A DNA stretch of 63,068 nucleotides, counting the filler, from Lenisia limosa (Eukaryota; Protista; Breviatea): NCBI GenBank assembly GCA_001655205.1. It is 5 parts of 5 records of this genome, joined end to end, with 100 filler letters (N's around TTAATTAATTAA, not from the genome) between each part and the next. Parts side by side here need not be neighbours in the genome. Positions count along the whole stretch, not along the records: positions 1 to 22,615 come from LPNZ01008266.1; positions 22,716 to 51,552 come from LPNZ01005454.1; positions 51,653 to 60,307 come from LPNZ01011466.1; positions 60,408 to 61,677 come from LPNZ01002973.1; 1 more part is not named here. The stretch is one strand, 5' to 3'. A program made the position numbers and the translations under genes. The notes below the pieces were generated by a model. That model saw nothing but the letters and a program-made list of their open reading frames with translations. It was not told where the DNA came from and did no database searches. This document shows, piece by piece, positions 3,860-61,677 of this stretch. Positions within the stretch are counted from its first letter, which is position 1; the number at the start of each line of letters is the position of its first letter.

Positions 3860-5460
3860 ATTTTGACTTGTCAATTTCGTGGAAACTGATAGTTCCACAT
3901 TTGAAAATCTCACAAATTATAATATCATATTGTTGTAACATTGTAATATGAAGTGCAGGGTGGGCATAACTACAATTTTTTGGGACAATCTTTTGGTTGG
4001 ATTCTTCTCTTGTTCCAAGCCCCGTGGAGTGGCGTAGATAGTAAGAATAGTTCAGTATATGGCAGCAAATAAACGACAGCATCTTTACAACAGTCGAGAT
4101 AATAATTCAATGAAAGAATATCAAGAGAGCTGTAGTCTAACCAAAATCAATTTTGATTCATAATAATAACAGGTTAAAAAAATTAAGTGTCAGTAATGAT
4201 GAGGATTTTTAAGTGGGAACTGGGAATGCAGTGTATCATGATTTATATATCATCTTTCTGCGTGCCTCCCCCATATATTACTGTATTATCTGATACTATA
4301 TATTATGTATATTTGATAACAGTTCAACACACTCGATCACACCATTCGATATTCATCTTCTTCTTTCATTCGGACTGGAGACAAGTTCCATTGTAACAAA
4401 ACTCTTGATCAACCAACTTGTGACGGAGTTATGCTTGATAAATGTGATGGGTGAGGTGAAATATTAATAATATCACTTTAACATGGTAAGGTGATGTATG
4501 ACGTATGCGATTAAAAATGCTTAAATAGAAGATTGATATTCTACTTGGGACATATATAACCGGCAATGAAGAGCGGAGGTGGCTAAGGAGATGAGAGACA
4601 GTGACCCCGCCGGGTTCGATTCTGATCAAAAGATCTTTTTTTTTCAATTTTTTATCTCCTCATTTTTTTCTTCTTTTTGCTCAAAATTTCTTTGTTTTGA
4701 TGTTGTTGATATTCTAGTACTCAAAACTCTAGGAGTGGTTTAATTCACAATATGTGAAAAAAATGATATTTGTGTGTCAATAATAGCTGAGGGATAGCTA
4801 GTTGAGCTGTCTAATGGAGTGTTTTGTTCTTAATTATCTTATATATGGTTGTTTCGGGCAGCTGCAATGAAGAAGGCAACTTGCTTGCTTTGTTTGCTAA
4901 CTTTTTTCTTCGCTCAGGGTGTGCTGTCTGTCGCCAATAACAACAAAAGGGGGTGGGTAATCAAAGGAGTAAAGACTTATCAAAACCAAATGATACAAAG
5001 CAAGCCTGTTCCCACCACCGCTTGATCACCCAGTTACATCAAAAGGGAGGCTTAGTAAGGCTACCATTGTGAAATGAAATCATTGCTTCAAAAGTATCAA
5101 ATTATAAGATATCTTACATTACCTCCTGATAATATATAGCAATGAAAAATAAAAAATAAGGTTGTATCGGACCGAAGCCATTACGCTTATTAGAATATTG
5201 GATTATAGTATAATATTAATTCACCCAATTATTTGCCTTACAACTTGTGCACATAGCTTTTTGTGTGCCTCCCCTGCATACCTGATAATATCTTGAATTA
5301 GACCAGCGTCTACTTGAAAAAGACTCTCTCTGATGTTATGTGAGATGCTTTGGGAGTTGAAACAGAAGTTAGCTTAAATCTCAAATGGGGGTATAAATTG
5401 TCTCACAATCACCAACACTGAGAAGTATAAAGGTTCAGACTTGATGCAAGAATCTTGTTT
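3860..5460 (-). pseudogene. Degraded multi-exon gene or genes of unknown function
   Basis: Alternating GT..AG-bounded segments and short reading frames with stops. Hosts the structured intron at 5126-5281. No recognisable domain. Confidence 0.3.
5126..5281 (-). other. Structured repetitive intron (family member A)
   Basis: Starts GTATGCAGGGGAGGCAC, contains ATTGGGTGAAT and GGCTTCGGTC-CGATAC, ends in a T-rich tract and CAG. Homologous to 58964-59107 and 61591-61677. Confidence 0.7.
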
Positions 5461-6649
5461 TTGATTCTTGATCCTTGATGTTTTTGTTTGTATTTTTTAA
5501 ATAATATAACAATAAGAAACTGACACTAATGTAACGCTAACACAAATTCGAACCTCCACAGCATGCAACATAAACAAAAACCGAATTTTCTTTTCGGAAT
5601 TTCACATTCTTTAAGTAAAGAGTAGTTATATAAGCAAGTACTCTCTTACTTACTAGCAATTAACTTATCCATACTTGCTCTCTGCTCAGAAGCAAGGTTC
5701 GCATTCAAATTGAAGTGTAAGGAGAAAACTACAAGTGTCATACAGTCAATAATAAAAAATATCAAAACTCTATCAATTAATAATGTAGCGTAATATACGA
5801 GCTAGTAGGGGAAAGCTGAGAATTTGGAGTATCGAGAAATCTTGAACCAGAACAAAAAATTCTATTTTCCGATGAGCCGCACTCTAAACAACCATAACAA
5901 CAGTTCAAGGGACAAGAGAATTCCGAAAAATAGGGGATTAGGAAGAAATTTTGAGTTATGATCTGAGCTGTGATTCTCATCACTATTTTGTTCAATGAAA
6001 ATGTGATGAAGACTCCTCCAAATCTTCTCGAAATACATTCAGTTGACCTTGAAAGGCTCTATTCCTCAAAAGGAGCAAAATAATGGAAAAGTACAAATTT
6101 TTGACATTTCAGATCCCAAAAAAAAGGACTTTCGCTAGACTCTCACGCGCTTTATCAACGCTTTACATACTAATTCAGTATTTAAACCATATCTATCCTG
6201 TTTTCGAACCGATTTCTGACATTTCCTTTGGAGCCGCTGTGCCGCGAATCACATGGACTTCTGCCTCAGTTTGTAAACGGAGGCTAAACCTTCGGAACTT
6301 GTATATTAAACTTAATATGGAAGAACAAAGGGGTTTAGGCTCATTCGGAGGGACACCTTAAACCTGGTGAAACGGCAAGTCAAGCTTCAATATACTAGTT
6401 GAAGGTTTGACACCCTCTAATATTATTCACATATCACCGGGAACGGCTCTCAATAGGTGCCGGGAACTTGGCCTGATCTCCACTCGCTTGTAGTTTACTA
6501 GTTAACTGTCTCTTTGTTATCCTAATAATACTTTGCTATTAAACAAAGTTGTTGGAGCCTTTAATCTGAATGCATCACGCTTCCCCTCTGCCCCTTACTG
6601 TCCACAGAAAGTAAGATCTAATGTTTAGTGTCAACGAAATATTAATGTG

Positions 6650-9300
6650 ATATGTGTTCTCAAAATGTGTCTGGGAGAGAAGTCCAAGCAAGAATTTGCC
6701 ACGGTTGCCTGACCATGCAGGACATCAACACTGGAACTGATGCCAAAGAAGTGAGTGTATAGAATTTATTGCTTATTCCTTTAGTTAATTATGAAAGTAT
6801 ATGAACAGTTTGAGACGGCTAACAGAAGGTGCCTCCAGTTGGAGAGGATTGAAGCGAAGCAAACCGAGCAGATTCAAAGTCTTAAGCAAGAGAATAGAAG
6901 GAACGCTTGCTGACTGTGACTACCTAATATATAGTAGAGCCATGTACCACTACAGACTCCAACTGTCAGAGTCATTGAATTTCAATGAAGAAAAGACACG
7001 CAATCAGCGTTATAAAAAATAGCGTCGTGGTCTTCCTCTGAAGGTTTGAGGTTTCACCATCCTTTAACTTTTAGACTGGATACCTCTATGAGGATTCTGC
7101 CAGGTTTTTAAAAACCTCAGTTGTTCAGCATCACCTTCCAATTCGGGCTCAGGAGTCCTTAATTTGGTTCGACAACGTTTTCACTTGTTTTTATCTTTAG
7201 TCTTTTTGACCATGCAACACGTGATGGATAATACCGTTCCACAAAGAAGAAGGTATTCCCCTTAGAAAGAACTTACGTTGTAGATCTGCAGCAGCGTTGA
7301 ACTTCGGGTTGCATTGAAGTCAACCGACCATGGGAGAGCTGGATCTCTTTCGGAGGTTGTGAAACTGTATGGAAAGAGTTTAGGCAGTGGAACGAAGCAA
7401 GTTTGGGCCCTTTGTAATGTCAGATTTTAGATGAATTACATTATATCAAATGATGGATCGCAAGTCATCTGAACGTGGCAGGCGTGTCTTTGAACTGATA
7501 AGGATGACCAGTCCAAAAAGTTGGTTAAATAGTGTGATTTCAAGTTTTATGTTTTAGAAAATGCAGTCAGAATGCAACATTTGCCTACTCGGCACATTCA
7601 AGGGGAAAGAAGATGAGAGATTTGTAAGGAAGTGCTATTCGCATTTTATGGAAGATTTGAAAAATTTGGCAGAAAATGGAGTGGCTAATACTGAAGAATT
7701 TCATGAATTTGAAGTGGCACAGATCCACCTTGGGGTGATCGACCCTCCAGCAGTGTCAGCGAATATTTAGAACCTGCCAAATAACACCAACCAATATCTA
7801 TGTAGTTTACCTACAAATCATGCAACTTATATGAATGATGAACACAAGAGAAAGTCAGAGGGGTCACACATTGTACCATTAGAACATTACATAAATATAA
7901 TTTTCTCCGACCCCTAACCAAGAGGCGGCAGCACGGTATCAGATTGCAAAGCTGTTGGAGGAAGCCCAAGGAAACTGGCGACAGTGTTCTCAACAACAGG
8001 GTGATTTGCAGAAAACAGTTCGTACAACGAATTTTTTGGGTTCAGTAATTGGGAGCCGTTCGGAACAAGAAATTTTCTATTCTCCAGCTGTTCAAGCCGA
8101 TCAGACAATCTATTCAGTGAAGAGGAGTGGACATGTGCATTTAAGAAAAAGTACGGACCACATCGCCTATACAAGCGCAGAGGTTGAAACTTGGTGCAAA
8201 AGGAGAGCAACTTTATAAAGACAAAATTCCACCCGACACATCAATATACCCTCTCCAGATGTGTCCCAATTTGTGATAGGTCCCATATGCTAGAGCCAGA
8301 ACGTTATTCTTGTTCCACAGCTTGAATATTCCTGCAGAAACACAGCACCCCAGTGCAGGTTTGGACCAAAACAAAATAGGTAGAAAGAAACACAAATTTC
8401 TTGGTGGATTATACGATTTCATTAGTTGAAGCTCCCAAAAGTCATTTTTGTCACGGCAACATCATTGAGAGTGGCAATGGTGTATGCTCTCTTGACTCAA
8501 TTCGCCAAATAACCCAAGTTGTATGTTCCTTTATATTAAAAACGCGTTCGCTAGCGAGAAGTTTTAAAGAAGGATGACATTTTATAAACCAATTGACGAA
8601 GTCAGGCCCAGGCAAAACAAGGTAATAACATGACAATAGTCAAGGTAATTTCAATAAACCCTCCACAATTTGAAAAACAGCTTCCCTTGTGATATGTTGG
8701 TCCTCGATAATCTTGACGTAGCACTCAATCTTCGGTGGCAGCAGTAATCAATCTTTGACAACCAGAAGGCTTAATTGACTCACTGCATTCTGTGTTGAAA
8801 CGATCGATGTTGTTATGTCGCAGTAAGATGCAATATAACGATTGGTCATAATAATACGTCTGCCAATTTTTTTATCATAAACCCAAACTGTTTTCAGTGC
8901 ATGCACCAAAATTATTAATTACACTAAAGGGTACTACACCATCCATACCTGTTCAACAAACACCTGCTGAATGGAAGTTGATTGTTGTGTTGGAGAACAT
9001 CTATTGCTTGCCTTGCAGCAGATGGAACAACACACTCAGGATGAATTAAAGCTTATTCTATGAGAATATAGAAGACAAAGAAAACAAAAAGAGGAGAATT
9101 CAAGAAAAAAAAGTCACCATGAATCCGCATGTCGGGGATGCTGGGACATTTTTGGTTCTTGTTGACAGCTTTAGAGAGGTTAAACCTGTAGTTGAATGAA
9201 AAAAATCAAACTTTTTGTTCGAAGGCTTTGTTCTTGTGTAATAATGCCAAATGAAGGACAACTCAATAACAATATTGTAAAACACTTCTTTATTCACTTT
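6650..9300 (+). pseudogene. Heavily decayed coding-like sequence, possibly transposon-derived
   Basis: Short protein-like frames (a coiled-coil piece EQFETANRRCLQLERIEAKQ; MLVLDNLDVALN) broken by many stops. No secure family. Confidence 0.25.
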
Positions 9301-10944: not shown

Positions 10945-13061
10945 NNNNNNNNNNNNNNNNNNNNNNNNNNNNNNNNNNNNNNNNNNNNNNNNNNNNNNNN
11001 NNNNNNNNNNNNNNNNNNNNNNNNNNNNNNNNNNNNNNNNNNNNNNNNNNNNNNNNNNNNNNNNNNNNNNNNNNNNNNNNNNNNNNNNNNNNNNNNNNNN
11101 NNNNNNNNNNNNNNNNNNNNNNNNNNNNNNNNNNNNNNNNNNNNNNNNNNNNNNNNNCTGGATTGAGGACCCTCTGTTTGCAGTTACAATAATGAATAAT
11201 GTAGTATAAATTGATTTTTATTTCACAATTCTTTGTGACACTGCAGCCGCCCCGACGACAGGTCAACCTAGAAACTTATTTAATCAAAATAAGATAGAGT
11301 TTTCCCTCAGGTCAATGATTGCTGACTCCGTTTTGGAGGCTGTTGCCATTCAGACCTCCACTGTTTCTATCTCAGAGCTTACACAAGTTGTTCTTTTTTG
11401 ACAGTGGTGGGAACAGGTTCTAATTGACTTGTTCTTGGTTCTGTTGGTAACGATGTTCACTTAATGTGATTAAAAAGGTGCTACATTCAGAATATTCACA
11501 ATGAAACGCCCTAGAAATGCTTATTTTGATGTGACTTTAGGATGCGAAAAATGGCTGTTGTCTGTTTCCATGGTTTGCTCATGGTTTGTTTTCTCTGTTT
11601 GCCTTGTTTTTTTTCTTAACTATTTTATAACCTCCTTCTGCTTTTATTACTTAGTCCCGTTTAGGGATTGGTGATAATGGCTGGTGTTAATGGTTACATT
11701 GTGTGCATTTTCATTCTCCAAAAACAAATCTAAAATAATGAAATCTGGTAGAAATATCAGTAACAGTTACTGTAAGTTACTGCGTTAGTCACTGACCCTT
11801 TCCTGTGATGCAATTATTAGCACAATTATTCATGACAGGAATGGCAGTGACGCAGATGATACGGATGACAACGCGGATGAGGATGTTCTATGGACTTCAG
11901 CGTATGTTAATTTCTACAGTCGACGGCTTATGGCAGAGGGTGCGCATTCTATGAAACTATTATGACTGCTTATAAACTGATGTCACAGTTCCTGCTTTGA
12001 TCACCATTCTCTTTCCTTATATTTGCTATATTGTGTCTTTGTTGGGGCAACGTTTATGGCGTTGAACTGGAGGCATATATTCGCGCTTTCTAGAGAAGTA
12101 GTTAAAAACATCACTCATTGTATCAATGATGGGCATCTCAACAAACTTGCCGGAAGAGCATGCAAAGTAAACCTTAAGAGTCAGGATTATCAGTAGCGAC
12201 ATGAATTAACAACAGAATCTGCTTACTCGGCGTCTTCTGTCTTCCAGTTGGCATGAGCGATGACATCAATATCAACTGAGAGAAGTACCATGAGGTTTTC
12301 CTTGTCATAACTTGCCTTTATTGATCAGTATTGCACACACACACACACAGCCATACATAATAAAAATAATATAAACCACAACTATGATTGGCCTTCGCCA
12401 GGTGGCACTAGAAGACAGGAAACATTTGCTGCCGTACAGCGTTTATTTCGCCCGGACATCTTGAAATTTGTTACTGTTGGAACGGCAATTGACAATGCTG
12501 GGACAGAGACGGGTGTGAATGAGCCGCTCCACTCGGTTCTTTGAAGGAATCTGTGGTTCACTAAACGAGCCAATTTTGTTTTTGCATCCGGAGGGCTTAA
12601 TGTGATGATTGAGGAGTGTGCCAACCGGCAACTTGGTATGAGCAGTTTTCCTTGACTATTTATCATGGAGTTGCCCGTCTCCCCTACGGCTGATAAAAGT
12701 GGTTTGTCATTATTGATGGTTTGACAACAGCAGCACGTTTGGCAGCAAGGGGTATGTTTCACGTTTCTTTTAACTTGATTCCACAATACTAATCGAAGCC
12801 TGCAAGAAGGTTATTGAGAAACCTTATAGAAGAGAACTACCTCTCCTCTTCATAGTTTATCTGTCAAACAAAACTGAATTATCTGGAACCTGCAAATATC
12901 AAGTTGAGGACCCCCAGATATATTATATTCTTCTACCCCATGCCAAAATTACTAAACTTTGACTTTGACCAAACCAACAGTCAACACCTCAACACAGACA
13001 CACAGGCAGTCCACAGGCTATCAATTTCAACCAAATTTCAATTGTATCCAACTATCCGACA

Positions 13062-13422: not shown

Positions 13423-13435
13423 AATGTATTTCCAG

Positions 13436-13829: not shown

Positions 13830-14977
13830 TCTAAATTGTTTTCCACTTAATATTTCAATATAGGAATCCCCAAATTAAGTAAAAACCTGGTAAAAACGAA
13901 AAAACGCACTCTGAAAAAAAAACCCTGGGGTTGTGTATAAGTTAAAGCAGGTTGGTAAACCAGAAACTCGGCTCGGATTCCCAGTTCTACTTGTTCTCTC
14001 TTTTGAAGCAGGACTGTGTTGTTAAGTTGACTACGGTTTCAAGTGGCCATTATGGGGTTTCGTTGCTAAAGAAGAATGCTGGCACCTGCACCTACTAGAG
14101 AGGACGAGGGCTTCGTCCAGACGCTTCCTCTGACATATTGTCCTAATGTGTATTTGTTTCCCTTGTCTTGTTTTTAATACATATTTTTTTAAAAAAAAAT
14201 TCCAAGCCGGTTGACTCTAGTTTAGTGTATTATTTTGTCTACTCCTATTTTCATTTGTATTGTTTGAAAAATTAACTAAATTCGAAAATCATCTATTTTT
14301 TAGGAAAGTTCTAGAAACACTGGACTAAAGGCCCATCAATGTAGGAGTCAAACCATTGTCTCAACTCCAAAAAAGTCAAATTAGAACTACAGAATGACTC
14401 TAGCTTAAACCGAGATTGGAAAGGTTCTGAGAGGTAGCGATATAACAAGTTCCTGAAGCAGAATACAATTGCCTCCAGTGAAATACATTCTGTAGACGTA
14501 GGAAGAAGGAAGAGAGGCTTCAAAAGAAGGTAAGGGAAAGCATTGAACTCTTTAATGCTCTACTGTCATTTAAACTAGTTTAATCATTTAGTATTGAAGT
14601 ACCATTGGATTAAACTTATGGGACATCGCATTAAAAGAGAACTTAATCCTTCAGAACCCAAACTCAACATTTATTCAGTTCTGCTGCTCTGTTCTTGGCA
14701 AGTTTCCGGCGTCTCACAGTTTTAAATAATGAAGAAAGTTATGCCTCGAAGTGGGCTTAAAGCGAGATGTCCATCTACCTTTTTGGGTTCGAATCTTGCA
14801 CAACTTTTTTTTACTATTATTCCTACGTTCCAGATTTCATCCAGGAAATGTTACTGTGTTAATCCCTTCCAGTCCACAGCATTGTTGTTTCATTAGTTTC
14901 ACATCATAGTGTTGTTTTTTTGTTTGTTATCTGGATACAATAGATGTATCAGTGTAATGTAATCAAGTCTTATTAAA

Positions 14978-16292: not shown

Positions 16293-16344
16293 CTGAAACT
16301 ATTAAAAATGATGCAATCGTTCACCACTATATATGATATATGTA

Positions 16345-17800: not shown

Positions 17801-17884
17801 TTTATTGTCTGCTACGGTTACTTGGTACTTCTTTGCCAATATTACTCATTAACTACAGTTAACAACATATACTATGTTATTTCT

Positions 17885-17991
17885 CCAAAACCCGGTTGTT
17901 TTTGGGATATCCCGTCACTTTTGAATAAATGGCGCCATAAGACCTCAATAATCCAATATTTTACTATTCTATCTAGCAGAAAGTAAAAATT
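17885..17991. repeat. ~107-bp repeat, inverted copy of 147-253
   Basis: See 147-253. Runs into poly-A and an assembly gap. Confidence 0.85.
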
Positions 17992-19281
17992 TTCAAAATT
18001 AAAAAAAAAAAAAAAAAAAANNNNNNNNNNNNNNNNNNNNNNNNNNNNNNNNNNNNNNNNNNNNNNNNNNNNNNNNNNNNNNNNNNNNNNNNNNNNNNNN
18101 NNNNNNNNNNNTCACATTTTTTTTCACAGAATCAAGAAGAAGACATCTTCCATGGAAAAGCCGGCGAAATGAAATTTAAACAGACTCCCGCTGAAAACCA
18201 TCACGCCTATTGTTACCTACCATTCAAGCCGATTGAGACAGTGAGGGACTGACGCATCTGACTTATTTGAATCTTAACGACGTTAAAAGAACTACAAAGA
18301 ATACTAACTGTAAGTACATACCTCTAACAGTGAAAATATATGACGAAGAACCTTTATAAGCAAATGTTATAACCATCCCAGTTAACCATACATATATATG
18401 AAAGGTGACATTGAGTTTCAAAAGTTGATTGTGTCTTCAAAGTTGTCAACTGCACTTTTCCCCTTTTCCTCCGAGCTTGATACCCACTCTTCCAGTTCTC
18501 CACCCGCAACCATTTTGAAAATCCTAAATAGTAAACAGCAAATAGAAAAGAATGCAACAAATAAGCATAAAAAAATTAATGAGGTCACGATAATTGGGAA
18601 GAATATTAAGGCTATCTAAAGTTGAAAAGACCAGAATTTGCCAGAACCTAAAACGCGGAGAGGCAAAGGTGAAATGTAGAAGCAGTTGAAAAACACTATC
18701 AGAAGACATAGTACATCTAGCCCAGTAGAATGAACCCCAATTTCTCTTAAAGGAAACAATGAGCGGGGGATTCTCTTGCACTTGCTTGAAACTTGAGAAC
18801 GCGGAAGAGTCGACAACTTTCCGGTCTGGAACAAGAGAGGAGGACCGGCGGCGGATCGGGAAGTACTACAGATTTGAACTTTGAGCTCCAGATTTGCACC
18901 GATCTGTGTATAAAAAGAAATATTGGGTAGAAGAAATTCAAAAACCTTCTGTTTTTGACGCGTTTCAAATTACACTTTCTTGCTTTAAGAATTCAGCGCC
19001 TCTTTGCAGCTGTTATTTAACCCATCGTAAAAATATATTCGCCTCTTGGGCTCCTAGGTCAATTGACAAATTATATATTTATACTCATTTAAAACAGATA
19101 CAAAAGCGAGATATGAATCGAAATTTTTTTGAGTTTCATTCTTGCACAGGTTTATTTATTAAAAACAAAAACAAAAATCACTCGTTTTTCTTTTTTGGGT
19201 GAAACAATTTTCTAATATTTGATAACGACAGCTCACAAATTTTGACTTCGAACGCTCTTCTTTGATGACACAAAAAATATA

Positions 19282-22615: not shown

Positions 22616-22659
22616 NNNNNNNNNNNNNNNNNNNNNNNNNNNNNNNNNNNNNNNNNNNN

Positions 22660-22671
22660 TTAATTAATTAA
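22660..22671. other. Artificial scaffold linker TTAATTAATTAA (also 51597-51608, 60352-60363, 61722-61733)
   Basis: Identical six-frame-stop 12-mer embedded in N runs four times. Confidence 0.95.
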
Positions 22672-22715
22672 NNNNNNNNNNNNNNNNNNNNNNNNNNNNN
22701 NNNNNNNNNNNNNNN

Positions 22716-24621
22716 TAGCAGCGCAAGCATCAGGAGCAGCTGTTGCGTCAGCGCAAGATGAGCCTGCCGGGCACTGTGTACAGGATGTTTCGGTGTTTCC
22801 AGTGGCATACCATCCGGTTAAACAATTAGTGCAAGTTGAAGTTCCACTTGCAGAATGCTTACCAGGACCACAATCAGCAGGAACAGAGGAAGGCGTAGCA
22901 CAGCTTTGACCAGCAGGACAAGGAGAACAAACAGAGTTCACAGNNNNNNNNNNAGTTGGATCTGCACACATGTAGCCTGCAGGACAATTAACACAGCTCG
23001 TAGTACCGACAGGGGAAGACTGTCCGGCTGCACAAATCACAGGAGCTACACTGGTACTGGCACAGCTGTACCCTTCAGGACAAGACGTGCAGCTCGTAGC
23101 ACCGTCCAAAGAATACTCGGTAGCAGCGCAAGCATCAGGAGCAGCTGTTGCGTCAGCGCAAGATGAGCCTGCCGGGCACTGTGTACAGGATGTTTCAGTG
23201 TTTCCAGTAGCATACCATCCGGTAGTACAAGAAGAACAAGCAGCCAATCCACCACCAGAGTACTTTCCGGCTCCACAGTCGACTGGAGCAACGGACGGGT
23301 CAAGACAAGACTTTCCCACAGGGCAGGGGGTACAAGAAGAAGCCGATGTAGAGGAGTACGATCCAGGAGAACAGATATCTTTCATCCCAGTCAAACAGAA
23401 GGAACCAGCAGGACACGGTAAACAGGCTGTTGAGGAACTGTATTCGGTATCCACACACTGAACCTTTCCGGTACCATCAGTATTAGGGCAAGCCCAACCA
23501 GAAGGACACATATCGCATGACGTACCATCACTTGAAGAAATCTCACCCGCGGAACATTCCTAAAAACAGTGTAAGAGTACATTTGAGAGACCCTGCGTTG
23601 ACTGTACTGTTGAGAAATGAGTATGGCTTCGCTCTGTCCAAAAAATCTGAAATTGTCGACAAAACTGAGAAATATTGATATTTTATTGTTAATCTTTTGC
23701 AGACTTAATGAAGTATTAGATATGAGAGACTAAAAAAAATGCAATATTTAGCGGAACATGCTTTGTTTACTACAAATTGATAGCTCAAATATTAGCGTAA
23801 ATAAAATCCTCATGAAACGCAATGTAAGTATGTTTAAAATGTGTAAGTGTGATATCCTGGTTCCGGTTCTTAGTTCTGTTTTTCTGGTTGTCGGTTCTCA
23901 GATTTTGAACTCAATTTTTCCATTTTAAAGCTTCACTCCCGATTCCAGTTTTCGGTTACCATATTTTGAAAAGAGTCGTTTCTGGTTTTTTCATCCCCAG
24001 GTTGGTCATTTATTTCTCTAATTGTTCTCTTTTTTCTCTCTTTCTACACACAATTAGAAAAATTGTAACCAAAAGTGAAGTTTCAATTTTGAGACCTAAC
24101 TATAAATAATATTTACCTCGGTAACCCTATACCATTATTTCTAAGGTAGCAAAGTATAGGCCCTAGATATCAGTTTTGGCATGTCAGAGGAGGAAAAGTA
24201 AACCTTGAGGGGTATGCTTATTGTATGATAGTATCTCATAAGGCATAAACAAGAGCTTCACCTTTACATGTGAAATATCAATTTAAAGACACAGTTTAAC
24301 CCACGGCAGATTCCCATCATACTGAGCAAGTTCCACTTGTCGACTGTCCAAGAGCTGTTGAGGCTGTTCCTGCGGGACACTTCGTGGGCGCGTCTAATCC
24401 ACCAGTACAACTGCGAGGATTAGTCCAAGAAGTGACTGTTACACCTTAAATAAACGTAATATTATCATTCCCACTCACTAATAACCAGCATGACACTGGA
24501 GGCAAGATCCAGAGTCAAAAAATTCCCCTGTCGAACAAGATGCCTGGCAGAATTGAGACAAACATAATAACAAAACTAATAGTAAGGGGGATAAACCCCT
24601 GAGTCTTGGTTCAACTGACAT
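22716..24621 (-). CDS. Secreted/surface Cys-rich repeat protein (GCC2/GCC3, ephrin-receptor-like CPAG repeats), 3' truncated
   Basis: Signal-peptide-like MSVEPRLRGLSPLLLVLLLCLSQFCQA at 24621. Repeats such as CLPCPAGSFC, CTPCPVGKSC, CTQCPAGSSC. 405-nt internal duplication. The joining of the 5' exons to the main ORF is inferred. Confidence 0.85.
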
Positions 24622-24869: not shown

Positions 24870-27800
24870 ATGGGTAGGGGTACTTTAAGGAAGAAGTTAG
24901 TCTTATTACTGTAGGTGAAGAACAGAAGCCGGCTGCCGATGTCCCTCTTGGACCTGATGGAAAGCCTCTCTCAAAGCAAGCGATTAAGCGAATGAAGAAG
25001 CAGCTAGAGGCTGAAAAGAAAAAGGTTTGCTGCAGGTCTCCAAATTTACTTTCTAAGGCTGAGAAAGCTGCTCTCCAAGCCGAAAAGAAGGCTCAGCAAG
25101 AAAAAGAGAAGGCTGCTAAGGCTGCTGAAGTCACCACCATTACTATGGACACATCTCTTCCCGAAGCCAACAAGGTTTGTCCATTTATAACCCTACCTAT
25201 CGCCACCTCAACACCCTTTCCCTTTAATTAATTGATAATGTTGTATGTTAATGGCCAGTAAGGCCGGAGAATGAGGTATTCTTCTCAGTTCATGAGTGCT
25301 ACGATCACCTCCTTGACTATTCATTCCTGTAGATTAAGCTTCGCAACGTGAAGGACAACATTGGCAAGCGCGTTCTTTGCCGTGGATGGGTAGGTGGCGC
25401 TGTTTTAATCTTTATGCACTCGCTATTATTTTTTAAAATGTGAGTTGAATTTTGTGCTGTTGTATTCTCCATTTTTCAGCACATGATAAATACATAATCA
25501 CAGTCAAAAAAAAATGCAGAGACTAGGGTTGCCGTAAATAATGACCATTCAGTGCCACAGAGTACGTACTCAGGGTGCGTCCCTCATCTTCATTGTGCTC
25601 CGTGACGGATCTGGTTACCTCCAAACTGTCCTTGCTGGCGACCTTGTTGGCGGCTTTTCTTCTTCTTTTTTTTTTTTGTGCAGTTTATAAAATTGATTAC
25701 ATTATTTTCATTTATATGAATAGGATCTTAATTGTCTAAAACACCTGGGTTTCACATCAACCCCCCAGGCCAAGACCAAGGAGGCACGTGCACTCACCCG
25801 CGAAACATCCGTGGCGATCTACGGAACTCTCCACGCTGACGAGAGGGCCGAGGGCGGTGCTGAACTGCGTGCTGACTACTGGGAGGTGGGAGGCGAGAGT
25901 CAGTTCGGGGGCATAAGGCCTTGTATTACCTTTTTCGCAACTGCCTATATGCCACGTTGTAAAGTACTACTGCCTATACCTTCATAAGAATTGAATTTAA
26001 TATTGTACGTCTCTCACATACAGTATTTAAAAGTCAGAAATCTCCTTGTCTTCATTTGACTTTTTGTATTTCTCAGAATTTCGTCAGCGAATACAATAAA
26101 GTTTTGTCTTTTGTTGTTGTTTTTTTTTTTGTTTTTTTTTACCCCCCCCCCCCNNNNNNNNNNNNNNNNNNNNNNNNNNNNNNNNNNNNNNNNNNNNNNN
26201 NNNNNNNNNNNNNNNNNNNNNNNNNNNNNNNNNNNNNNNNNNNNNNNNNNNNNNAAGCCGGACCGGAGGTGCTCTTTGACAACCGGCACATCGTCCTTCG
26301 TGGCTCCAAGGCATCCAACATCCTCAAGGTATGGAGTCTTTCTTTCGCTGGGGTATACAACCGTTAGTTTGATTGGGGGGGAGGGGTACTTAATTCTCAG
26401 CTTTGGTATGTGTTGAGGTGGTATTAGGGCTTCACTTTGATTCGGAAAATATATGAATTTCTCGATAAATCCTCTAAAACTATCGCTGTTTAAGCNNNNN
26501 NNNNNNNNNNNNNNNNNNNNNNNNNNNNNNNNNNNNNNNNNNNNNNNNNNNNNNNNNNNNNNNNNNNNNNNNNNNNNNNNNNNNNNNNNNNNNNNNNNNN
26601 NNNNNNNNNNNNNNNNNNNNNNNNNNNNNNNNNNNNNNNNNNNNNNNNNNNNNNNNNNNNNNNNNNNNNNNNNNNNNNNNNNNNNNNNNNNNNNNNNNNN
26701 NNNNNNNNNNNNNNNNNNNNNNNNNNNNNNNNNNNNNNNNNNNNNNNNNNNNNNNNNNNNNNTAAGCCAGCAAGGTAAAATTCCGGGCTATTATTTTGAA
26801 ACAAATCCAAATGAAACCGTAAAACCATCACAACACCTGGTAGATTTTATTTTTAGTCTTCTCCCCCTTCATTTTGTTTTCTTACCTTCNNNNNNNNNNN
26901 NNNNNNNNNNNNNNNNNNNNNNNNNNNNNNNNNNNNNNNNNNNNNNNNNNNNNNNNNNNNNNNNNNNNNNNNNNNNNNNNNNNNNNNNNNNNNNNTCCAA
27001 ACTCAGTGTGAAGGCGGCTCCTCCCTCTTCAATGTGAGCACTTTGTTTGCCTCATTTTTTGATTCACACTGTCACAGTGTCTAATAATGCATCCAGGTTG
27101 ACTACTTCCAAGAAAAGGCCTACCTCACCCAGTCTAGCCAGGTGAGTTGCTCAGCTTTTGCCTGTTTGGGGCTTCTTATAAATTTTGTCAGTCTCGTACG
27201 CTTGTCCTTTTTGATTCTAATTCAAATATTCTGATACTTTAGCTCTATCTTGAAACTCTTATCCCTTCAATGGGTGATGTTTTCTGTATCCTTCCCTCCT
27301 ACAGAGCTGAAAAAAGGTTTGTGTTATAAAAGTAATGGGTGGACGGCTTCGGCCAGATACACCATACAATGTACTGATTATTTACCCGTGATAGTCGCAC
27401 CCGGCGCCATCTTGCCGAGTTCACACATGTCGAGGCTGAGTGCCCCTTCTTGGACTTTGACGAGCTCATGGATCGCATTGAGGACCTTGTATGTGACGTC
27501 ACCGAACGCGTCATGAACACCTCAACCGAACTCATGAAGGAGGTGTGTTTTGAGTTCCTACGGACACAAAAAAGGACTGAATGTCTGTATGAAATCTTCA
27601 TAAATATTGAGACACATTGCCCTTTTTGGACTTGGTACACGTAATAGATAAACACTTAGGAGCTGTACCTGGTTCAGGGGGGGGGGGGGGGNNNNNNNNN
27701 NNNNNNNNNNNNNNNNNNNNNNNNNNNNNNNNNNNNNNNNNNNNNNNNNNNNNNNNNNNNNNNNNNNNNNNNNNNNNNNNNNNNNNNNNNNNNNNNNNNN

Positions 27801-35983: not shown

Positions 35984-36059
35984 TGATGGATAATGTAATA
36001 CTATATGATATGTACCAAAGCTTTAATACTGTACAATTTACCATGTATTGATACATAAC

Positions 36060-39655: not shown

Positions 39656-44199
<4,544 letters not shown>

Positions 44200-46881: not shown

Positions 46882-49800
46882 ATGAAATCATGGGCCTCTA
46901 TTTTTATCACCTTGATGGTATTTTCCCTCGTTGCTGCTAATGCTAATGCAGGTAAGATTAAGTCGGGGTTTTGAATTAATTTTCAGTGCTTTGGCAGTGG
47001 TGTTGGGATGTCAACACTTCAAACAACCCCTGGAACTGTGGTAAATGCGGACATGATTGTGGAAGTGAGTTTTAGATGACTTATCATTCCATTGTAGAAG
47101 GTAAATTATGCAAAAATTCACAATGCTATACCCCTGCTACTTGCAGTAAAGGACAAAGGCAATGTGGGAACAGGTAAAGACAAAGTTTACTAGTTTTATG
47201 ATGAAGGTGTGTTGACATTGGTACTAATCACTGGCATTGTGGAGGTTGTAACAAAAAATGTGAGACTAATACGTGGTGCAGAGGCGATCGATGTGTCTGT
47301 GAGCTGGAGGAATTGTCTGCATTTATCATCTCCCAATTACATATTCTTCTTTTTTTTATGGACAAAAATAAAGAAATAGAATATGCCTTATTTCCATTTT
47401 CTATTTAAGACCCTTCAGCGTGTCCAAAATTGAGTTCAATCTGTGATAACTCATCAACATGTGTGGCACTTCATACGAACAACAGATGGTTTGCTCTATT
47501 TGTCCAATGTTGATCACCGTTATAGTGGTAGTTGTCACACCAAGTGTGCAAACGGAAAAGTTTGTGTAAATGGCAAATGCAAAACAGCAAGTAGGCTAAC
47601 ACTGAATTATACAACTTATCACATTTATTATATGTTATGCAAAGATATCTTCATATGATATTTCTAAACCTTTTCAGAGTGCAAGGGACCGGAACGTTAC
47701 TGTTCTGAGGCGCAAGGTTGTACCAACTGTCTCGAAGACAAGAACAACTGTGGTAGCTGCGGAAACAAATGCACAAACGGCAAAGTATGATGTGAGTTGA
47801 TATATTATGGTTTTCAGATATGCCGCAACGGTGCCTGCAAACCTGTGATCTGTGAAAAGAATGAGTTCAAATGTCCAATTGACTCAAATGTCTGTTGTCT
47901 TAAAGAACAAGTCTGTGTAAATGATTCGAATGGGCTTGGCAAGTGCAAATGCAAAGAAGGCTTTACCGAGTGCGGAGGACAGTGTTGTGGGTACCAATTT
48001 CTGCCAAATTCACTCATTTTGATATAGTCAAAGATAATATATTTTTGAAAGACAAAAATAACTGTGGAGAATGTGGAAACAAGTGTCCAGGAACCAATGA
48101 ATGCGTTGAAGGCAAATGCAGTGAGTTTGGGTTTGAAAAGTGATCATATTATATACTATGATATGTTACCTTCATCAATTACACACATTTAGAATTTGAG
48201 TGTGATCAAGATAATGACGAATTCCTTTGTCACTTTGATACAAGTGTCTGCTGCACAAAGAACACTATTTGCGTGCTTGATGCAGACATGAATACCAAAT
48301 GTGAATGCAAAGAGCCAAATGAAGAATGTGATGGACAATGCTGTAGGAAATTGTTCCACAAGGTCCAACTAATCTCTATAGACACCCATAAACAATATGA
48401 ACGCGATAATAAAAACTGTGGTGAATGTGGTGTCGAATGCCCAGAAGGATCTAGGTGCACTGGAGGGGAATGCAAACCGGTAAGATGGGTTTAAATTTCC
48501 ATCTATGAAGCAATAAAGCTCATTCATCAGCTTTGTGGACAAATGGAGACACTGTGTAACGAATCACAAACATGTTGTCATCGCTTTAACCAAAAATGTG
48601 TCAAGGTTGGTTAAAGGCAACAAATATTTGCCCTTTCACTTCTTAGAAAACAGGAGCACTTGGCGAATACGTTTGCCAATGTGTTGAAGGCTTCACTGAC
48701 TGCTCAGGAGAATGCAGTTTGCATTTAATCATCATATACCTACTACACTCTTTTCCTCAATATTTTGTGATAAATACCTTTAGTACAAAACTCAGACTTT
48801 CACACTAACCCCGACAACTGCGGAGGATGGTGAGGTTTCAACAATACGGACTCAATTCAGCATTTATTTTCACCTGTCATTCACCCAGTAACAACAAATG
48901 CGATTCTGGTCAATGTTTCGAGGGACGATGTGTTACGCAATGCTCTGATGCTGGAATGACACCTTGTCCCTCCTCAGACCAGCTTTGTTGCCGCAAGGAC
49001 CAGCTGTGCATTATCAATGACCTTGGAGTGGGTAGCTTTAGATTTAGACCATTTTTTCTCTTAAGAGTATTTATTTTGCTTAGAAATACGCGTGTGAATG
49101 CACTGACTACAATGTTGAATGTGGTGGAAAGTGCCACCCATTTAATGTAAGTTTTACAATTGCCCAAATTAACTCAATTATATTTTAGTTCTTTGAGCAT
49201 AGTCGAAATCATTGCGGAGAATGCGGTCATAAGTGCGAAGAAGACTACGACTGCGTTAGAGGCGTATGTGGTAGGTGGCTTTACTTTAAAATGAAACTGT
49301 TATTTCACTCCATAGTGTGTAACAATTCGAAATGTGCTAAGTGCAATAGCAATGAAATTCAATGCGACGGCGAGTGTGTCAGAGTTTGGGGGTAATACTA
49401 TAAGACAAGATGGTATTTAATCAGGTTGACACTTTTAGTCAATATCCCTAGAAAAAACAATAATATTTCAAATTGCATAAAAATGGCTCTTTGGTAACGT
49501 TTCAATTGCTATAAAGGCCACTCTAAATTCACACTTCAAGATAAGTGAATCCAATTGCTTCGGATGTGGTAAACGATGTCGTACTGACGAGTTCTGCAGT
49601 ACACAACTTCAGGGATGCAGTTTGAGGGTCGCATGGCCTCCATATCAATAATCAGTTCTCCTAACAATCAAGCTGAAAAGTGCGGAAGAAGTGAACAAGT
49701 CTGCCCACATAAGCATAATCTTTGCTGCAAAAGGTGGGTTATTGCAAATAACGTGATAACTATTTCCTTGTTTCTCATTCCATGCAGTAACGAGAAGTGT

Positions 49801-51537
49801 CACTTTAGTGACTTTGATGATGACTTTATATGTCTTTGCTCCAAACCAAACGTCCAATGTGATGGACATTGTGGTGAAAATTGTGTTTACTTGTATTTGA
49901 CCACCTCAGTTACCCCAAAATCCTTCCTTTTTTGGGATAAACATTGCGGCTCATGCAACAACAAATGTCAACAATTTGAGAAGTGTATCAACGGCATCTG
50001 TAGTAGTGTATGAATGGACTGTTTATATTTCGGTTCTCATTACATCAAGGAATGCCGCCAAAGTCAGATTGCGTGTAAGGATGGGACCACGTGTTGTGAC
50101 AGAGAAACCGAAAAATGTCACTTGGTAGGAATAACTTGGACGAAAAATGAACTTTGTCGCCAGTAACATTGATATGATTTTCAAAAACATGTAATGATTT
50201 TGAATATTTGGTATTAGTAATTATAACTATCAGGATGGAGATGAATATGAATGTCAGTGCAATGACAGCCATGTGCATTGCAAGGGTAAATGTCTTAAAA
50301 AAGAGAGGTTCAAAACAGACAAACACAATTGTGGAAAATGGTAGATTAAGATACTTGGAAAACAATCCCCTTATTTTGACTGTAGCGGAAGAAAATGCAA
50401 AAGCAATGAATCTTGCAAAGTTTCCGAATGCACTGAAGATTGTCCTTCGGATCATAAAAGATGCAAAGATGACACATGCTGTCGAAACGATCAAATCTGC
50501 AAGAAGGAAGTTGGTACCCTTCAAATCAATTGCTTACATCCAAGGGCATTGTGTTTAACAGGTACAAATGCGCTTGTGAGAGAGGATTTAAAGAGTGTAA
50601 CAACAAGTGTCAAAGCAAAAATGTAAGTTGAATAGGAACACACAATTTACTTGACAACTTTCATGTTTATTGCTTCTAGTTCTTCTTACAGAATAATGAA
50701 CATTGTGGAGGCTGTAATAATCCTTGCAAAAAGGGTGAAACTTGTCACTTTGGTCGATGTAGTAGGTGGTTGACATTGTCTTTTAAATACTCAAAATAAT
50801 CCTAAATAAATATGATTTACAGTGTATTGTGATAAGTGCTTGTCAGATTGAATATTATAATATTTGACTTCAATAGAATGTACCGAACCAAGTGGTAATT
50901 GCCGCTGCGCGATTGATGAAATCGAATGCAATGGGGAGTGTACCAAGATCACTAACAAAAATTGTTTCACATGTGGATTCAAATGTCCATCAACTTCATT
51001 TTGTGACGCCAGAGCACGTCAATGCAGTATGTTTTTGTGTCTTCAAAAACGTCCGTTTCGTTTTTCACTCAATAGTATGTGCCAACCAGCTACCTCTATG
51101 TGGTGATGCCTGCTGCCATGATGGTGAAACTTGCGTTAACCAGAGTTGGAGGAGATGATGATTTTCGTTTTATTAAGAGAGATGTATGTGACCAAATAGA
51201 ATGTGTCAGCAAGGGAGATTGTACAGACAATGAATTCCCTTGCCCCCTCTGGGGAGTTCAACCGTTATGCTGCCAGAAGCATGATGAAGTATGTAGCGTT
51301 CAAGGTTCCAAGTTCTCATGTGAATGTGCAAATCGAAAAAAACGGTTAGTTGGAATATTGAACTTGAACATGTTATTGTTTTTAGGTAAGAAATTTACTG
51401 AGAAATCACAATTCAGCTGCGGATCTCATTGTACCAACATTTGGGATGACCGTCGTAACTGTGGCGATTGTGGCACCAGCTGCAAGAAATCAGAAGTGTG
51501 TCATGAGGCGCAATGCAGTCAGTGGGCTAACACTTAG
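46882..51537 (+). CDS. Large secreted Cys-rich repeat protein with many Stig1-like (D/N-x-x-NCGxCGxxC) modules
   Basis: Signal peptide MKSWASIFITLMVFSLVAANANA. Recurrent NCGKCGHDC, NCGSCGNKC, NCGECGNKC, NCGDCGTSC across more than 20 short exons; the introns checked are canonical. Stop at 51537. Confidence 0.85.
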
Positions 51538-51989
51538 AGTGGTGATAGATATNNNNNNNNNNNNNNNNNNNNNNNNNNNNNNNNNNNNNNNNNNNNTTAA
51601 TTAATTAANNNNNNNNNNNNNNNNNNNNNNNNNNNNNNNNNNNNNNNNNNNNTGATGAAAAAAAAACCCAATTGAATTGAGAAAATGCTACACATCGCGT
51701 TATACTATTGAGTTACTGATTCATAGAAGAAAGAAACGGAAAGATATAAAGATACGTTTTAATACTCTATTTACTCAAATAAAAAAATCAAACACAAGCG
51801 CACGCAAACTAAACTGAAACTTTCAACTGAAGCAAATTAAATTCTTGGTCCGGTCACAATGTTCACTTACATCCGAGGCCCTAAATGTCACTTTTATTAA
51901 AAAAAAACTGTAGGACCTACTTAGTAAGGTCGGTGGCTTTCACTTTGTACAAAAAATAATAAAGGTAAAAATCCAAAACTTTGAAAGAG

Positions 51990-55970: not shown

Positions 55971-56916
55971 ATGTAAGTCCAATTAGATACCAATTTTTTT
56001 TTCTCCTTTTCTCCTTTTTGCTACCCGAACAAAATCGAAGCTGTTTTACGAAAAACTTCCCAACAGAAGTATCCCGAAGGGTCTTTTTAATTGTACTATC
56101 AATTTTTTTGTACAATAAAAACAAGGACTGAAGGTTGGTAAACCAGATTTTCACCTCGGAGTTTTGGTCAATGTACTTTCATAGGCATGTAAGACCTCTT
56201 GTTACTTGTTCTTTGATTGGTTTGAAGGTTTTATCACCACGTGATTTGTCGAATTGCTGCTGAGCCACAGTTTTTTGGGCAGGTATTTTCCAGCCCAAAG
56301 AGATTAAATATTTGCACCACTCTACCTTTTACTTCTTCTCCTTGGTTTCTGCAACAGTATTTAGACAATTGTTGAATTTATTTTGAAAACTGAAATGCAC
56401 AGACTGGGAAGCCGAGCCGAATTGCTGGTTTACAAACCTTAAAGGCAGGCCGCTAAACCAGAATGAAACCTTGGAGTGTTCAGATTTTTCTATGGATTTG
56501 GGACTTGGAGGGAGTCAGATTTTGGCAATTATTGACCATAGATTTGGGCTTGTATTGCTTCAAACATAGCAAAATTACGCAGTTAGAGCTTGATAAACCT
56601 TGTTCCACGAGTAAATACAATGGTGTGTGATTTCGAACAGTAAAAGAACATTCATCACTAGCCTCAAGCAGGATTTTGGACCTTTTACTGCATGATTCAA
56701 TGTAGCATTCTTTTTTTACTCATATCACTCTACATTTATTAAAGAAATGAACAAACAAAAAGGAACAGGGAACTTGGATTTGGGGCTAGGTTAAGATTAC
56801 GTAGTGAATATGGTTTGGAGACCTGCTTTATGCAATATATTTTCACATTGTGGTAATTGTATGAAGTTCAAATTTGATGACTTTCTGTTTTATTTTCTAT
56901 AGCAGTGCTTCAAATT

Positions 56917-57118
56917 GGAAAGTTGTCTCGGATATCCGATGTACACTATTCTTAATTGCGCGTCATATTGAACGTGAATTGCGCTACTTTTTCCTCTTTT
57001 ACTCCTTCTCAAAATCGACTTAAGAGTCATTATCAATACTAAATGGAATAATACACGTAAACCGCTCCAAAGAAGACCTATTCTTCGATAATTAATCTAC
57101 TATCCGAGACAACTTTCC
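56917..57118. mobile_element. MITE-like ~200-bp element with 18-bp perfect inverted ends
   Basis: GGAAAGTTGTCTCGGATA at 56917-56934 and its reverse complement at 57101-57118. Confidence 0.55.
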
Positions 57119-58169
57119 CATTTGAAACCCTTTTCTTGCAGTGGCTAGTTTAAATATAATACTTGATTAATACTTAATACTTGCTTTTTCAAAGCAGGGT
57201 TAAATACAAATTCACCAAGTTGAGGATTTACTGACTAACAAAAAACCTTGAAATGCGTCACTGGCTTTAGTGGTGCATTTGCAGTGACAGCCTCAGTCAT
57301 ACTTGTTGAGGATATTTTTGAAACGGTTTTGGCAGTTAAAAGTACAATAATGATAATAGTAAATTGTTAAAATAATTCTGTTTAACAATTGCTTTTATCG
57401 TTGTTCAAGCTTCGTGCACATCCTCCCGTCGACAAGAAATAATTACAAAACAACAACAAAATTCCTAACTTTTTTTATAACAAACAGAGCAACATTCACA
57501 AAAAGGTAAATAGTACACTCAAGTGAAATGGAAAAAGGGGGGAAGGAAATGGTTGGGAAGTGATTCTCCATTCTACGCTTCTATGGCCAATCAACGGATA
57601 AAACTAGATAAGAGGTTAGAGAGCGCTTAAGGTTGGCGCCAGGGTGCCAATTGCTCAGAGAATTCTCGATTGTGTTCCTCTTTTTTTAGTTTTGCATGAT
57701 GATTTGTAAAAGAGGCAAATTTATGAGTATATAAGAGAAAGTCAGGAAGTGAATAGTGTTTTCATTGTCTTTTTCCATTGAGTAACTCGCGTCTCTTACC
57801 TCCGCCTTGCCTCTCTTAGCTGTTTTATGTTAGATTAGTACTCTAGAGTCATGCCCGACAAGTGTTAACTCTTATTCATCCTTGATATTGATGCTCGTAA
57901 AACCCCATCAGGTAAACTATAGGAAAGTTGATTCATCCTTTGTTTACCATTTAGTTGGCTCATCTGTTGATTTTAGAGAAAGAATATAATTGTAAGTGAG
58001 TGGTCAAATCATGTTCAATCCCCCCCCCCNNNNNNNNNNNNNNNNNNNNNNNNNNNNNNNNNNNNNNNNNNNNNNNNNNNNNNNNNNNNNNNNNNNNNNN
58101 NNNNNNNNNNNNNNNNNNNNNNNNNNNNNNNNNNNNNNNNNNNNNNNNNNNNNNNNNNNNNNNGTTTTC

Positions 58170-60130
58170 TTTTAATTTTGGAGACAAGAGATTTCACTCT
58201 TTACAAATTTCCCGCGCCCCAGACTGCGAAATGAAAGTTCCGTAAAGGTAATCATGAATGACAGTTTTTCTACCTGGTGATTCATTGTTTTTTTCTTTAC
58301 TGTTGCCAGGAAATTTTGGGTCTCCAAGATAACACTTTCCATCCGCATTGCCCTTCCTCCTTGAAGTGACTCTCGCCTTGCAGGATTGCTTCAAAGCTGG
58401 ACAGGATTATCTCCTTATTGGCTTTATCACAGAGCTTCATTCTCTCCATCAACAAGGTTTGCTCGTTCTTCTAACTATAATGACACCCGTCTCACAGTGT
58501 TCACTGGTCAAAAACGAACTACCTTCTTCACCCCCACCATAGAAAAAACCAAGGATTGATCTTGAGGTAGGTCGAGTTTTTTCTTCAAGTCACTTTCTTG
58601 TCGCCTATATTAAGCTAATAATACAGAGATATAGCGACAGTGAGGAGAGTAATAGTGACGAACTGATGTAAGCTGAGAAAATTGAGCACATCGTTTTGAT
58701 AATAGAATAAATCATCTTGACAAGTAGCGTAATCAATGATCTTAATGCTGTAGATTCAAACCCCTTCACTAGTCCTACTATTGAGCCACTTTTACTGTTC
58801 TCCTTTGAGTACGTTATCAATTATTTACGATAATATTATTCTTTTAAGCCTTTGATATCTGCAATTCTAACCTCCTGAATCTGTGGCATAAGACGGATTT
58901 AGGTGGGCCCATGGGTTATTATGCAGGGGCTATTGTCCTTATTCATGAATCTAATCTATGTAGGTATGCTAGGGAGGCACGCAGAAAGCTGTGTGCACAG
59001 GCAAATGATTGGGTGAATAACAATAAAACTATATATTCCATTATCTCTTATAAGCGTGATAGTGTAGACGGCTTCGGCCAGATACTACCTTTTTTTTATT
59101 GGACCAGTGTGGTCTCAAGCTGGTGGAGGTGGAAAACAATACCCGCGCGATTACCAGGGCCAACCACTTTTCGGGCCAAGTGGTAGGCAAAGGTTTCACC
59201 CCTGTCGTCACAAACTCATCCCCCGCCAGTGCGACCAATGTGAGTACGAGCGCTGCTCCAACGCCCGTCAGGCCCAACAGGAGCTCTCAAGCCTTGTTAA
59301 GAGGACAAGAGAGGCCTGCTCCCAAAAGAAATGTGTTTGTAGGAACAGCCACCAGGAGGCCTCTGAGGACTCCCGCAAACGCAGACGTAACCAAGGGTTT
59401 TTCAATGAAAATTTTCACTTATAACTCGATCATTAGACACTGCTTTGCATCATTGACCTCCCCCTACAACAGGAATTGTTTGACTAACCCCCTCCTCCAA
59501 AACTAAAGCCATGCTCCCATGGTCCTTGACAGTTACGGGAGGAGGTGCTTAGACACTGAAGGTATGTCAGCCACAACCCCCACAAGCAGCTACCCCCATA
59601 AAAACTTCCGCGACAACGTTGATATGGAATCACGGACCCCCATAAAATTCAAAAATGATGACCAGACGAACCTGAACTGTTGGCGGCAGACATGCCAGCG
59701 TACGTAATTAAGCAGGCCTCGAAACTCAATGAGGAAAGGAAAATCAAAAGACTGGACAACCTTGTAGTCGAGCGATGTTCCAAATTCAGATTGGCCTCTC
59801 CCTCCGAGGAAACAGCTGGAAATGTTACAAGACTATCGCCTGAAAGAACGGAAGTTGAAACTCAAATCAAAAGAAGAATCAAGGCCCAAAACTGCGAAAC
59901 CTACCTCTAGCCCCCCTCCCCCTCGAGAAATAGCAAAACGCCTCAGGCCACGGCTCCAAAAAAGGCCAAAAAATGCGAGAAATACAGCTAAATAAAGACT
60001 AGTCACAAGCACAAGGACAAAGAAAAGAGAAAACCTGAAAGATCTCCAATCAAAGAAAAGGAATCCCCAAAAAGCAACGCCCCAGCTCCACAGGCAAAAA
60101 AGAGTTCCAGTAACTGCAAAGAGGAAGTAA
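58170..60130 (+). pseudogene. Multi-exon gene of unknown function with a premature stop and frameshifts
   Basis: GC3-rich exons IASKLDRIISLL.., PPP*KKPRIDLE, QYPRDYQGQPLFG..CRHKLIPRQCDQC..RKRRRNQ. Later segments are broken. Confidence 0.45.
58964..59107 (+). other. Structured repetitive intron (family member B)
   Basis: GTATGCTAGGGAGGCACGCAGAAAGCTGTGTGC...ATTGGGTGAAT...GACGGCTTCGGCCAGATAC...CCAG. Removing it joins two exons in phase. Confidence 0.75.
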
Positions 60131-60434
60131 TCATGAGTCAAATGGCAGTTTTGTCAAATGCCATTCAAGCCTAAACTGATAAAATGGCAACACTAGAATC
60201 AGGAAAAACTAAGGAAGCCCCCAACAGCCCATAAAACCCCAAACGCAGTTGCCCAGACGGCCCAGTCCGCCCCCCCCCCCTCCAGGCATCTACCCTCCAG
60301 GACTTGANNNNNNNNNNNNNNNNNNNNNNNNNNNNNNNNNNNNNNNNNNNNTTAATTAATTAANNNNNNNNNNNNNNNNNNNNNNNNNNNNNNNNNNNNN
60401 NNNNNNNTGTTGTTATCAACCCTCGTGTTACAAG

Positions 60435-61497: not shown

Positions 61498-61590
61498 TAC
61501 TCTTTAGCCCCACTTCGAAAAAAAAAACCCAGAAAATATCGATATGTGCCATCCATCCGAAAGTATAGATTTTACAGTATATTACTACTA

Positions 61591-61677
61591 GGCACGCAGT
61601 AAGTTGTGTGCAGAGAGTTGTAAGATTGGGTGAATTAATACTTCTTGTATGGTGTGGACGGCTTCGGTCAGATACAA
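61591..61677 (+). other. Structured repeat (family member C), probably within a CDC7 intron, cut by the scaffold end
   Basis: GGCACGCAGTAAGTTGTGTGC...ATTGGGTGAAT...GACGGCTTCGGTCAGATAC. Confidence 0.75.

Follow-up and report, generated by a model that had tools for sequence, protein, structure and literature searches.

A probable SINE-like repeat, present in many copies and beginning with a donor-like motif, in the genome of Lenisia limosa

Related hairpin-forming sequences recur at several places in a 63,068-nt stretch of DNA (the window) joined from five records of the Lenisia limosa assembly GCA_001655205.1, and the question they raise is whether they are introns that multiply as such, structured RNAs encoded within introns, or copies of a transposable element. 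The window is intron-rich eukaryotic DNA of ~38% GC that contains spliced exons of AsnRS, RPS20, Ssu72 and an RNA polymerase subunit, and a preliminary description had proposed the first two answers. A search with the RPS20 exon recovered no relative exceeding 80% identity. The mobility that it attributed to the family is borne out, but neither the spread as whole introns nor the structured intronic RNA is. The family is instead probably a high-copy, non-autonomous retroposon resembling short interspersed nuclear elements (SINEs), dependent for its copying on the reverse transcriptase of a long interspersed nuclear element (LINE) that is itself unseen. An ordinary SINE, the outcome that the description had itself set against its proposal, is thus the better fit.

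Two public sequencing runs match the window, both available as contigs: one is DNA-like, of unrecorded type, and the other is polyA RNA from the same study. The DNA-like run contains 0.88 of the words of the window and is possibly the source of the assembly itself, hence it lends no independent support. Contigs were aligned at 80% likeness onto two regions, 58164-60307 and 3900-6000. For both regions the counts of end classes given below are among the matches listed, and there may be further classes, including one in which AG precedes GT.

The three blocks by which the family was first recognised lie where they had been placed: at 58977-58996, 59008-59018 and 59067-59085 (+) in a near full-length copy, 58964-59104 (+); within 61592-61675 (+); and, more diverged, in 5126-5281 (-). 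In the first of these they comprise a 5' hairpin with an 8-bp stem and an AAAG loop, a middle block (ATTGGGTGAAT), and a 3' hairpin, GGC-TTCG-GCC with an outer stem, which has the deepest coverage within the family and is predicted to be the site recognised by a LINE reverse transcriptase. Across the window the 3' motif has six matches at ≤3 mismatches, against 0.20 expected, and the 5' motif four, against 0.02. A covariance model built from three copies recovers a fragment in an AsnRS intron that was outside its training set (E 9e-4); it gives 14 hits, of which none of the rest falls below E 0.48.

The copy at 5126-5281 (-) is full-length, running from GTATGC to ...CATTGCTATA and followed by the second copy of a target duplication, which ends in CAG. 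That at 61590-61677 (+), found by nhmmer and the covariance model, lacks its first 11 nt, carries internal deletions and is cut by an assembly gap. As had been observed, two copies begin at GTATGC following AG, the AsnRS intron (27317-27394) contains the 3' hairpin only, and 4254-4271 (-) carries the 5' motif alone. The AsnRS match is a 5'-truncated fragment on the sense strand (27323-27362 (+); nhmmer and the covariance model), and nhmmer places the other fragment at 4254-4273 (-) with E 0.052. The blocks, hairpins and GTATGC starts therefore stand, but the three complete introns reported with them do not, and neither does the decayed copy at 11922-11937 (+). This last, which agrees with the 3' motif at 13 of 16 positions, is doubtful and may be due to chance; it was found by the motif scan only and is absent from both the 11 nhmmer hits and the 14 covariance-model hits, and a comparable match (14/16) occurs also at 14106. 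A helicase-gene intron with a weak match, 43287-43353 (E 0.48), was considered as a further copy and rejected, as the match depends in part on letters of the 5126 duplication, which belong to the host yet are inside the model.

Directly upstream of the copy at 58964, depth in the DNA-like run marks an extension of the element (58772-58963 (+)) that exists in fewer copies and ends in an acceptor-like motif, CTAAT..TAG, immediately before GTATGC. It is also present on a second copy, represented by DNA contigs over 3900-6000. This longer, rarer form may be the 3' end of the partner LINE or of a parent transcript.

The number of DNA contigs with unlike flanks identifies the family as dispersed. 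A total of 2,213 were placed over 58164-60307, 916 of them only in part, and 1,876 over 3900-6000, 788 only in part. The flanks of the 58964 copy have a summed depth of 35-41, which rises toward the element through 154, 1,152 and 5,800 over 58740-58955, stands at 39,072 and 156,669 on the element itself, with peaks of up to 274,000, and returns to 84 just after it. As these depths are inflated by overlapping short contigs, the estimate of copy number was based on junction contigs instead, and these place the repeat, which is ~150 bases long, at no fewer than several hundred loci. The four clear copies in 63 kb correspond to ~60 per Mb, or a few thousand copies if the window is typical. At three positions, 58971, 59061 and 59066, the copy at 58964 has private differences, with ~96% of the depth reading the other letter, as expected under drift from one master.

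The two ends of the element behave differently. At the 3' end, 60 contigs diverge at 59096 and 94 at 59097, where the copy at 58964 has an incomplete tail, and a further 54 depart from the copy at 5126 at position 5132 into unlike flanks (agreement 0.39); hence the 3' end of the family is fixed, at about CATTGCTATA, and has no AG of its own. The 5' loose ends are distributed over several positions, including 58964 (55 contigs), 59032 (56) and 59042 (55), and the pieces and joints listed start at 58772, 58795, 58883, 58913, 58957, 58962, 59037 and 59044. The 55 contigs ending at 58964, the G of GTATGC, have no G before it and a majority flank composed entirely of A and T. Both tandem (go-back) and opposite-strand joints are found among the DNA contigs. 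With the 3'-only fragment at 27323, the family thus combines a fixed 3' end with 5'-truncated copies, and it is short, non-coding and interspersed, as the hundreds of junction contigs attest.

A signature of insertion is seen at 5126. An exact 11-bp direct repeat, of a length that only 5 of 5,000 random loci reach, flanks this copy at a spacing of 156 nt, its 5' copy lying at 5281-5291 (-) (ATATTATCAGG on the minus strand) and its 3' copy at 5125-5135 (-); the latter, also located by the direct-repeat search, is the source of the AG that had been read as an acceptor. One DNA contig of single-copy depth joins 5124 to 5281, skipping exactly 156 nt and so representing the empty site. The flank is a low-copy repeat, such that this contig may derive from a paralogue rather than an allele, although it is an empty site either way. 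No open frame crosses it.

The constant 3' end and scattered 5' ends of the family, its 11-bp target-site duplication and its tandem and inverted joins, together with an absence of inverted termini, are marks of target-primed reverse transcription. Under the favoured reading of the family as a SINE-like retroposon, an RNA copy would be bound at its 3' hairpin by the LINE enzyme, and reverse transcription would be initiated from a nick within AT-rich DNA, perhaps assisted by the short TA tail. Early stops would leave 3'-only fragments, such as that in the AsnRS intron, and filling of the gap would generate the target duplication. Copies would then persist in introns and between genes, and the repeat likely inserts in introns and other non-coding DNA alike.

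Several observations weigh against this reading. No reverse transcriptase or endonuclease domain was detected in the 266 open reading frame pieces scanned, from 505 frames in the window, and no partner LINE was seen there. No copy has a B box, there is neither an A nor a B box at the 5' end, and there is no poly(A). The joint representing the empty site is a single contig whose short side, at 23 letters, is below the advised 30-31, and the duplication at 5126 is the only one measured, with none at 58964 or 27317. Summed depth is not a copy number, such that its gradient from 5' to 3' can be taken as approximate only, and diverged sequence rather than truncation may account for some of the 5' loose ends.

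The head that defines a SINE in the strict sense, derived from tRNA, 7SL or 5S RNA and carrying the A and B boxes of a Pol III promoter, is likewise missing: ARAGORN found no tRNA, Rfam gave no match, and the one A-box match, at chance level, is in the middle of the copy at 5126. The family is therefore probably a SINE in the broad sense and is not filed as a strict one, no partner LINE having been found in the frames scanned and no Pol III boxes at its 5' end. Among known systems, stringent LINEs require a 3' stem-loop that they share with their partner SINEs (PMC4176376), and the SINEs of such LINEs, in the L2, CR1 and RTE clades, have the same conserved 3' stem-loop near a fixed 3' end and no poly(A); in the present family, by contrast, no tRNA, 7SL or 5S head was detected, and no cognate LINE was found. 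By description rather than by sequence, the closest kind reported from a protist appears to be EhSINE1 of Entamoeba histolytica, which is non-coding, has hundreds of copies, T-rich targets, poor A and B boxes and no clear small-RNA source, and in one class has target duplications centred on 9-13 bp (PMC2996970). EhSINE1 is however 450-680 bp long, with internal repeats of 26-27 nt and the partner EhLINE1, against ~150 bp here.

A non-autonomous element moved as DNA could also lack terminal repeats, whether Mutator-like, with a duplication of 9-11 bp, or related to the Helentron-associated elements known as HINEs. The 11-bp duplication is within the Mutator range. The 3' stem-loop, which lies ~35 nt before the end, is consistent with HINEs, as are the AT-rich targets and the tandem copies; HINEs and DINE-1 are also short and non-coding, with T-rich targets (PMC4067079). 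Yet neither terminal nor subterminal inverted repeats link the ends of the copies at 5126 or 58964, which sets the family apart from miniature inverted-repeat and other terminal-inverted-repeat transposons, and there is no 12-15 bp repeat of the subterminal kind, no 5' TC and no 3' CTRR. Helitrons make no target-site duplication (PMC4067079), whereas both a duplication and an empty site are present here, and the 5' ends are staggered while the 3' end is fixed. Movement as DNA is accordingly unlikely.

Two further alternatives concern splicing, for which the repeat has suggestive features. After one of 15 candidates was dropped, the intron set comprised 14 in the window that are GT..AG. The starting hexamer GTATGC fits the pattern GTNNGY of 13 of their 14 donors, which 2.9% of G-starting hexamers fit, and the 3' part of the element, CTCATTGCTATA, with a T tract and CTCAT near its 3' end, resembles acceptor and branch regions in the window such as CTTAATGCTGTAG. 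At 5126 the duplication ends AG|G, such that a GT from the end of the element and an AG from the duplication delimit precisely the 156 nt that the empty site lacks; this is the only copy for which carried or co-opted splice sites would allow exact excision. Both copies with a known host direction (27317 and 58964) are in sense orientation, which are too few to establish a strand bias. The longer form of the element, however, already has AG before GTATGC, so a microhomology of three bases explains the junction at 5126, and the GT..AG appearance of two copies is likely to reflect a donor-like 5' end and an AG from the host flank.

None of the copies is seen to be removed from a transcript as an entire intron. 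Three complete introns had been claimed, but the copy at 61591 meets a gap of Ns at 61678 with no visible acceptor, the AG preceding it is part of the element's own AGGCAC, and those at 5126 and 58964 have no RNA joint among the contigs listed. The frame upstream of 61591 is BRCT-like by eye, yet nothing was found for it in Pfam, the PDB (E 0.42) or a protein search. No RNA contig covers the flanks of 5126, although uncovered flanks are no proof of silence, and all 13 RNA contigs placed over 3900-6000 are partial, several retaining element sequence. The copy at 58964 lies among RNA contigs from which five nearby GT..AG introns, all on the + strand, have been removed. None of those listed joins 58963 to 59108; one starts at 59106, on the AG that precedes 59108, as would be expected if this acceptor were used but without demonstrating that it is, and 58884-58955 has no RNA cover, again no proof of silence. 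The transcript concerned (58311-59392 (+)) is multi-exonic, with five introns spliced in the RNA run, and is partly made of the upstream extension of the element. It has stops in all three frames whether the element is included or removed, and is either a transcribed pseudogene or a non-coding RNA.

Hence the AsnRS intron is the only sound one among the claimed cases: it is GT..AG, and its removal restores a 15-residue AsnRS motif. The match to the family nevertheless fills only ~40 of its 78 nt and leaves the donor, branch site and acceptor outside. Similarity does not therefore extend to both splice boundaries, the AsnRS match being interior and the family 3' end having no AG. The statement that the family spreads as whole introns is not supported, in view of this incomplete match, the missing acceptor, and the 55 contigs that start at GTATGC without an exon-end G.

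It is conceivable, though improbable, that the retroposon was born from an intron. A captured spliceosomal intron with a donor, pyrimidine tract and branch site, and no AG, would be spliced in its sense copies using a nearby AG, yielding an RNA with its 5' end precisely at GTATGC and with the 3' hairpin for the LINE enzyme; splicing would then replace a promoter, and duplications ending in AG|G would give rise to new, exactly excised introns. Intron-derived RNAs that end near the branch point can be retroposed, and the type-2 snoRNA retroposons provide a precedent with target duplications, sometimes 3-17 nt short of the 3' end of the intron (PMC1687206); by comparison, no snoRNA was detected in the present family, which has no A-rich tail, far more copies, and a 5' end at a donor-like GT instead of the 5' end of a snoRNA. 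The microhomology and frameless empty site at 5126 count against such a cycle, as do the listed junctions, most of which lack the expected context. If true, it would explain how a short retroposon is expressed without a Pol III promoter, and would constitute an RNA-based route to exact intron gain.

Overlapping with this, and likewise unlikely, is the interpretation of the family as introners, which would insert into exons, supply their own donor GT together with a pyrimidine tract and a branch site, acquire AG from the duplication, and be spliced exactly. The predicted excision of exactly 156 nt at 5126, the donor-like hexamer, the likeness of CTCATTGCTATA to acceptors such as CTTAATGCTGTAG and the two sense copies all accord with it. 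Recruitment of this pattern, with the donor from the element and AG from the duplication, has been described (PMC9860276, PMC11282704, PMC3443670), including in Chrysochromulina (PMC9860276), and non-LTR elements make up ~5% of classified introners (PMC12130899). The copy at 5126 shares with such introners a donor at the 5' end, AG from the duplication, no terminal inverted repeats and possible exact excision, but most copies are truncated or lack an AG|GT context, as do most of the listed junctions, and the duplication measures 11 bp, against 4 in those introners. Of the 5' classes listed, the most common has no G before GT, the 3' flanks are unlike and have no common AG, no RNA joint spans any full copy, and the 5126 empty site contains no open frame. 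As for the AsnRS intron, a match touching neither splice site is of the kind that surveys filter as secondary insertion (PMC9860276).

A conserved RNA structure is less likely still. Changes that preserve pairing exist, as had been reported, but all three are one-sided, two cells break pairs, and none of the 14 pairs changes on both sides, in a count across three sequences only and so of low power; all changes at paired positions are transitions, which is what drift would give. Shuffled sequences fold as well as whole copies do (z -0.8 to +1.0). For windows picked around the hairpins, two copies have a stable 5' hairpin (z -3.8, for 58977-58996, and -3.6) and the third a damaged one; for the 3' hairpin, one copy of four attains z -2.2. 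The Rfam scan that had been suggested was applied to the window and, separately, to two copies, and yielded chance hits only; the hammerhead core has eight matches in the window against 5.6 expected, none of them within a copy. Thus, despite G-U pairs and a C(UUCG)G loop that favour the given strand as RNA, the good folding of two 5' hairpins and an ACA following the 3' hairpin in three copies, a functional snoRNA-like or ribozyme-like RNA, selected in several host genes, is very unlikely for a family without compensatory change or Rfam match whose copies are truncated and deleted in different ways at hundreds of loci, a number typical of transposons.

Other repeats are also present in the window. 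A second high-copy repeat at 4610-4750, with summed depths of 5,818 and 4,008 against ~40-100 and a T-rich tail, has at 4613 (+) a B-box-like motif, GGTTCGATTCT, similar to others at 14786 and 54168; it resembles a SINE of the tRNA type. A palindromic repeat of ~50 nt with MITE-like ends occurs at 1944-2000, 2217-2273 and 56047-56092, two of the copies being inverted 216 nt apart, and a further short dispersed repeat has direct and inverted copies at 13949-13985, 56132-56165 and 56403-56480. An inverted pair of 148 nt, 118-265 and 17873-18020, is 83% alike, with a long A run ending one arm, and is possibly a further retroposon family. Cysteine-rich repeat protein genes are located at 47400-51540 (+) and 22716-23559 (-), the second matching ephrin-receptor-like repeats. 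The 100-nt gaps at 22616-22715, 51553-51652, 60308-60407 and 61678-61777, each with TTAATTAATTAA mid-gap, are linkers, so the DNA on either side of them may not be adjacent.

Pattern scans of viral contigs, metagenome contigs and prokaryote genomes revealed no match to the family, and a search of the literature, based on words rather than sequence, found no account of this repeat family or of a SINE cycle in which RNA is released by splicing. With no match in the collections scanned, the repeat appears to be previously uncatalogued. A high-copy, probably SINE-like family from a poorly sampled eukaryote should be useful in annotating the Lenisia genome, and it carries a warning that hairpins shared among introns can be transposon debris.

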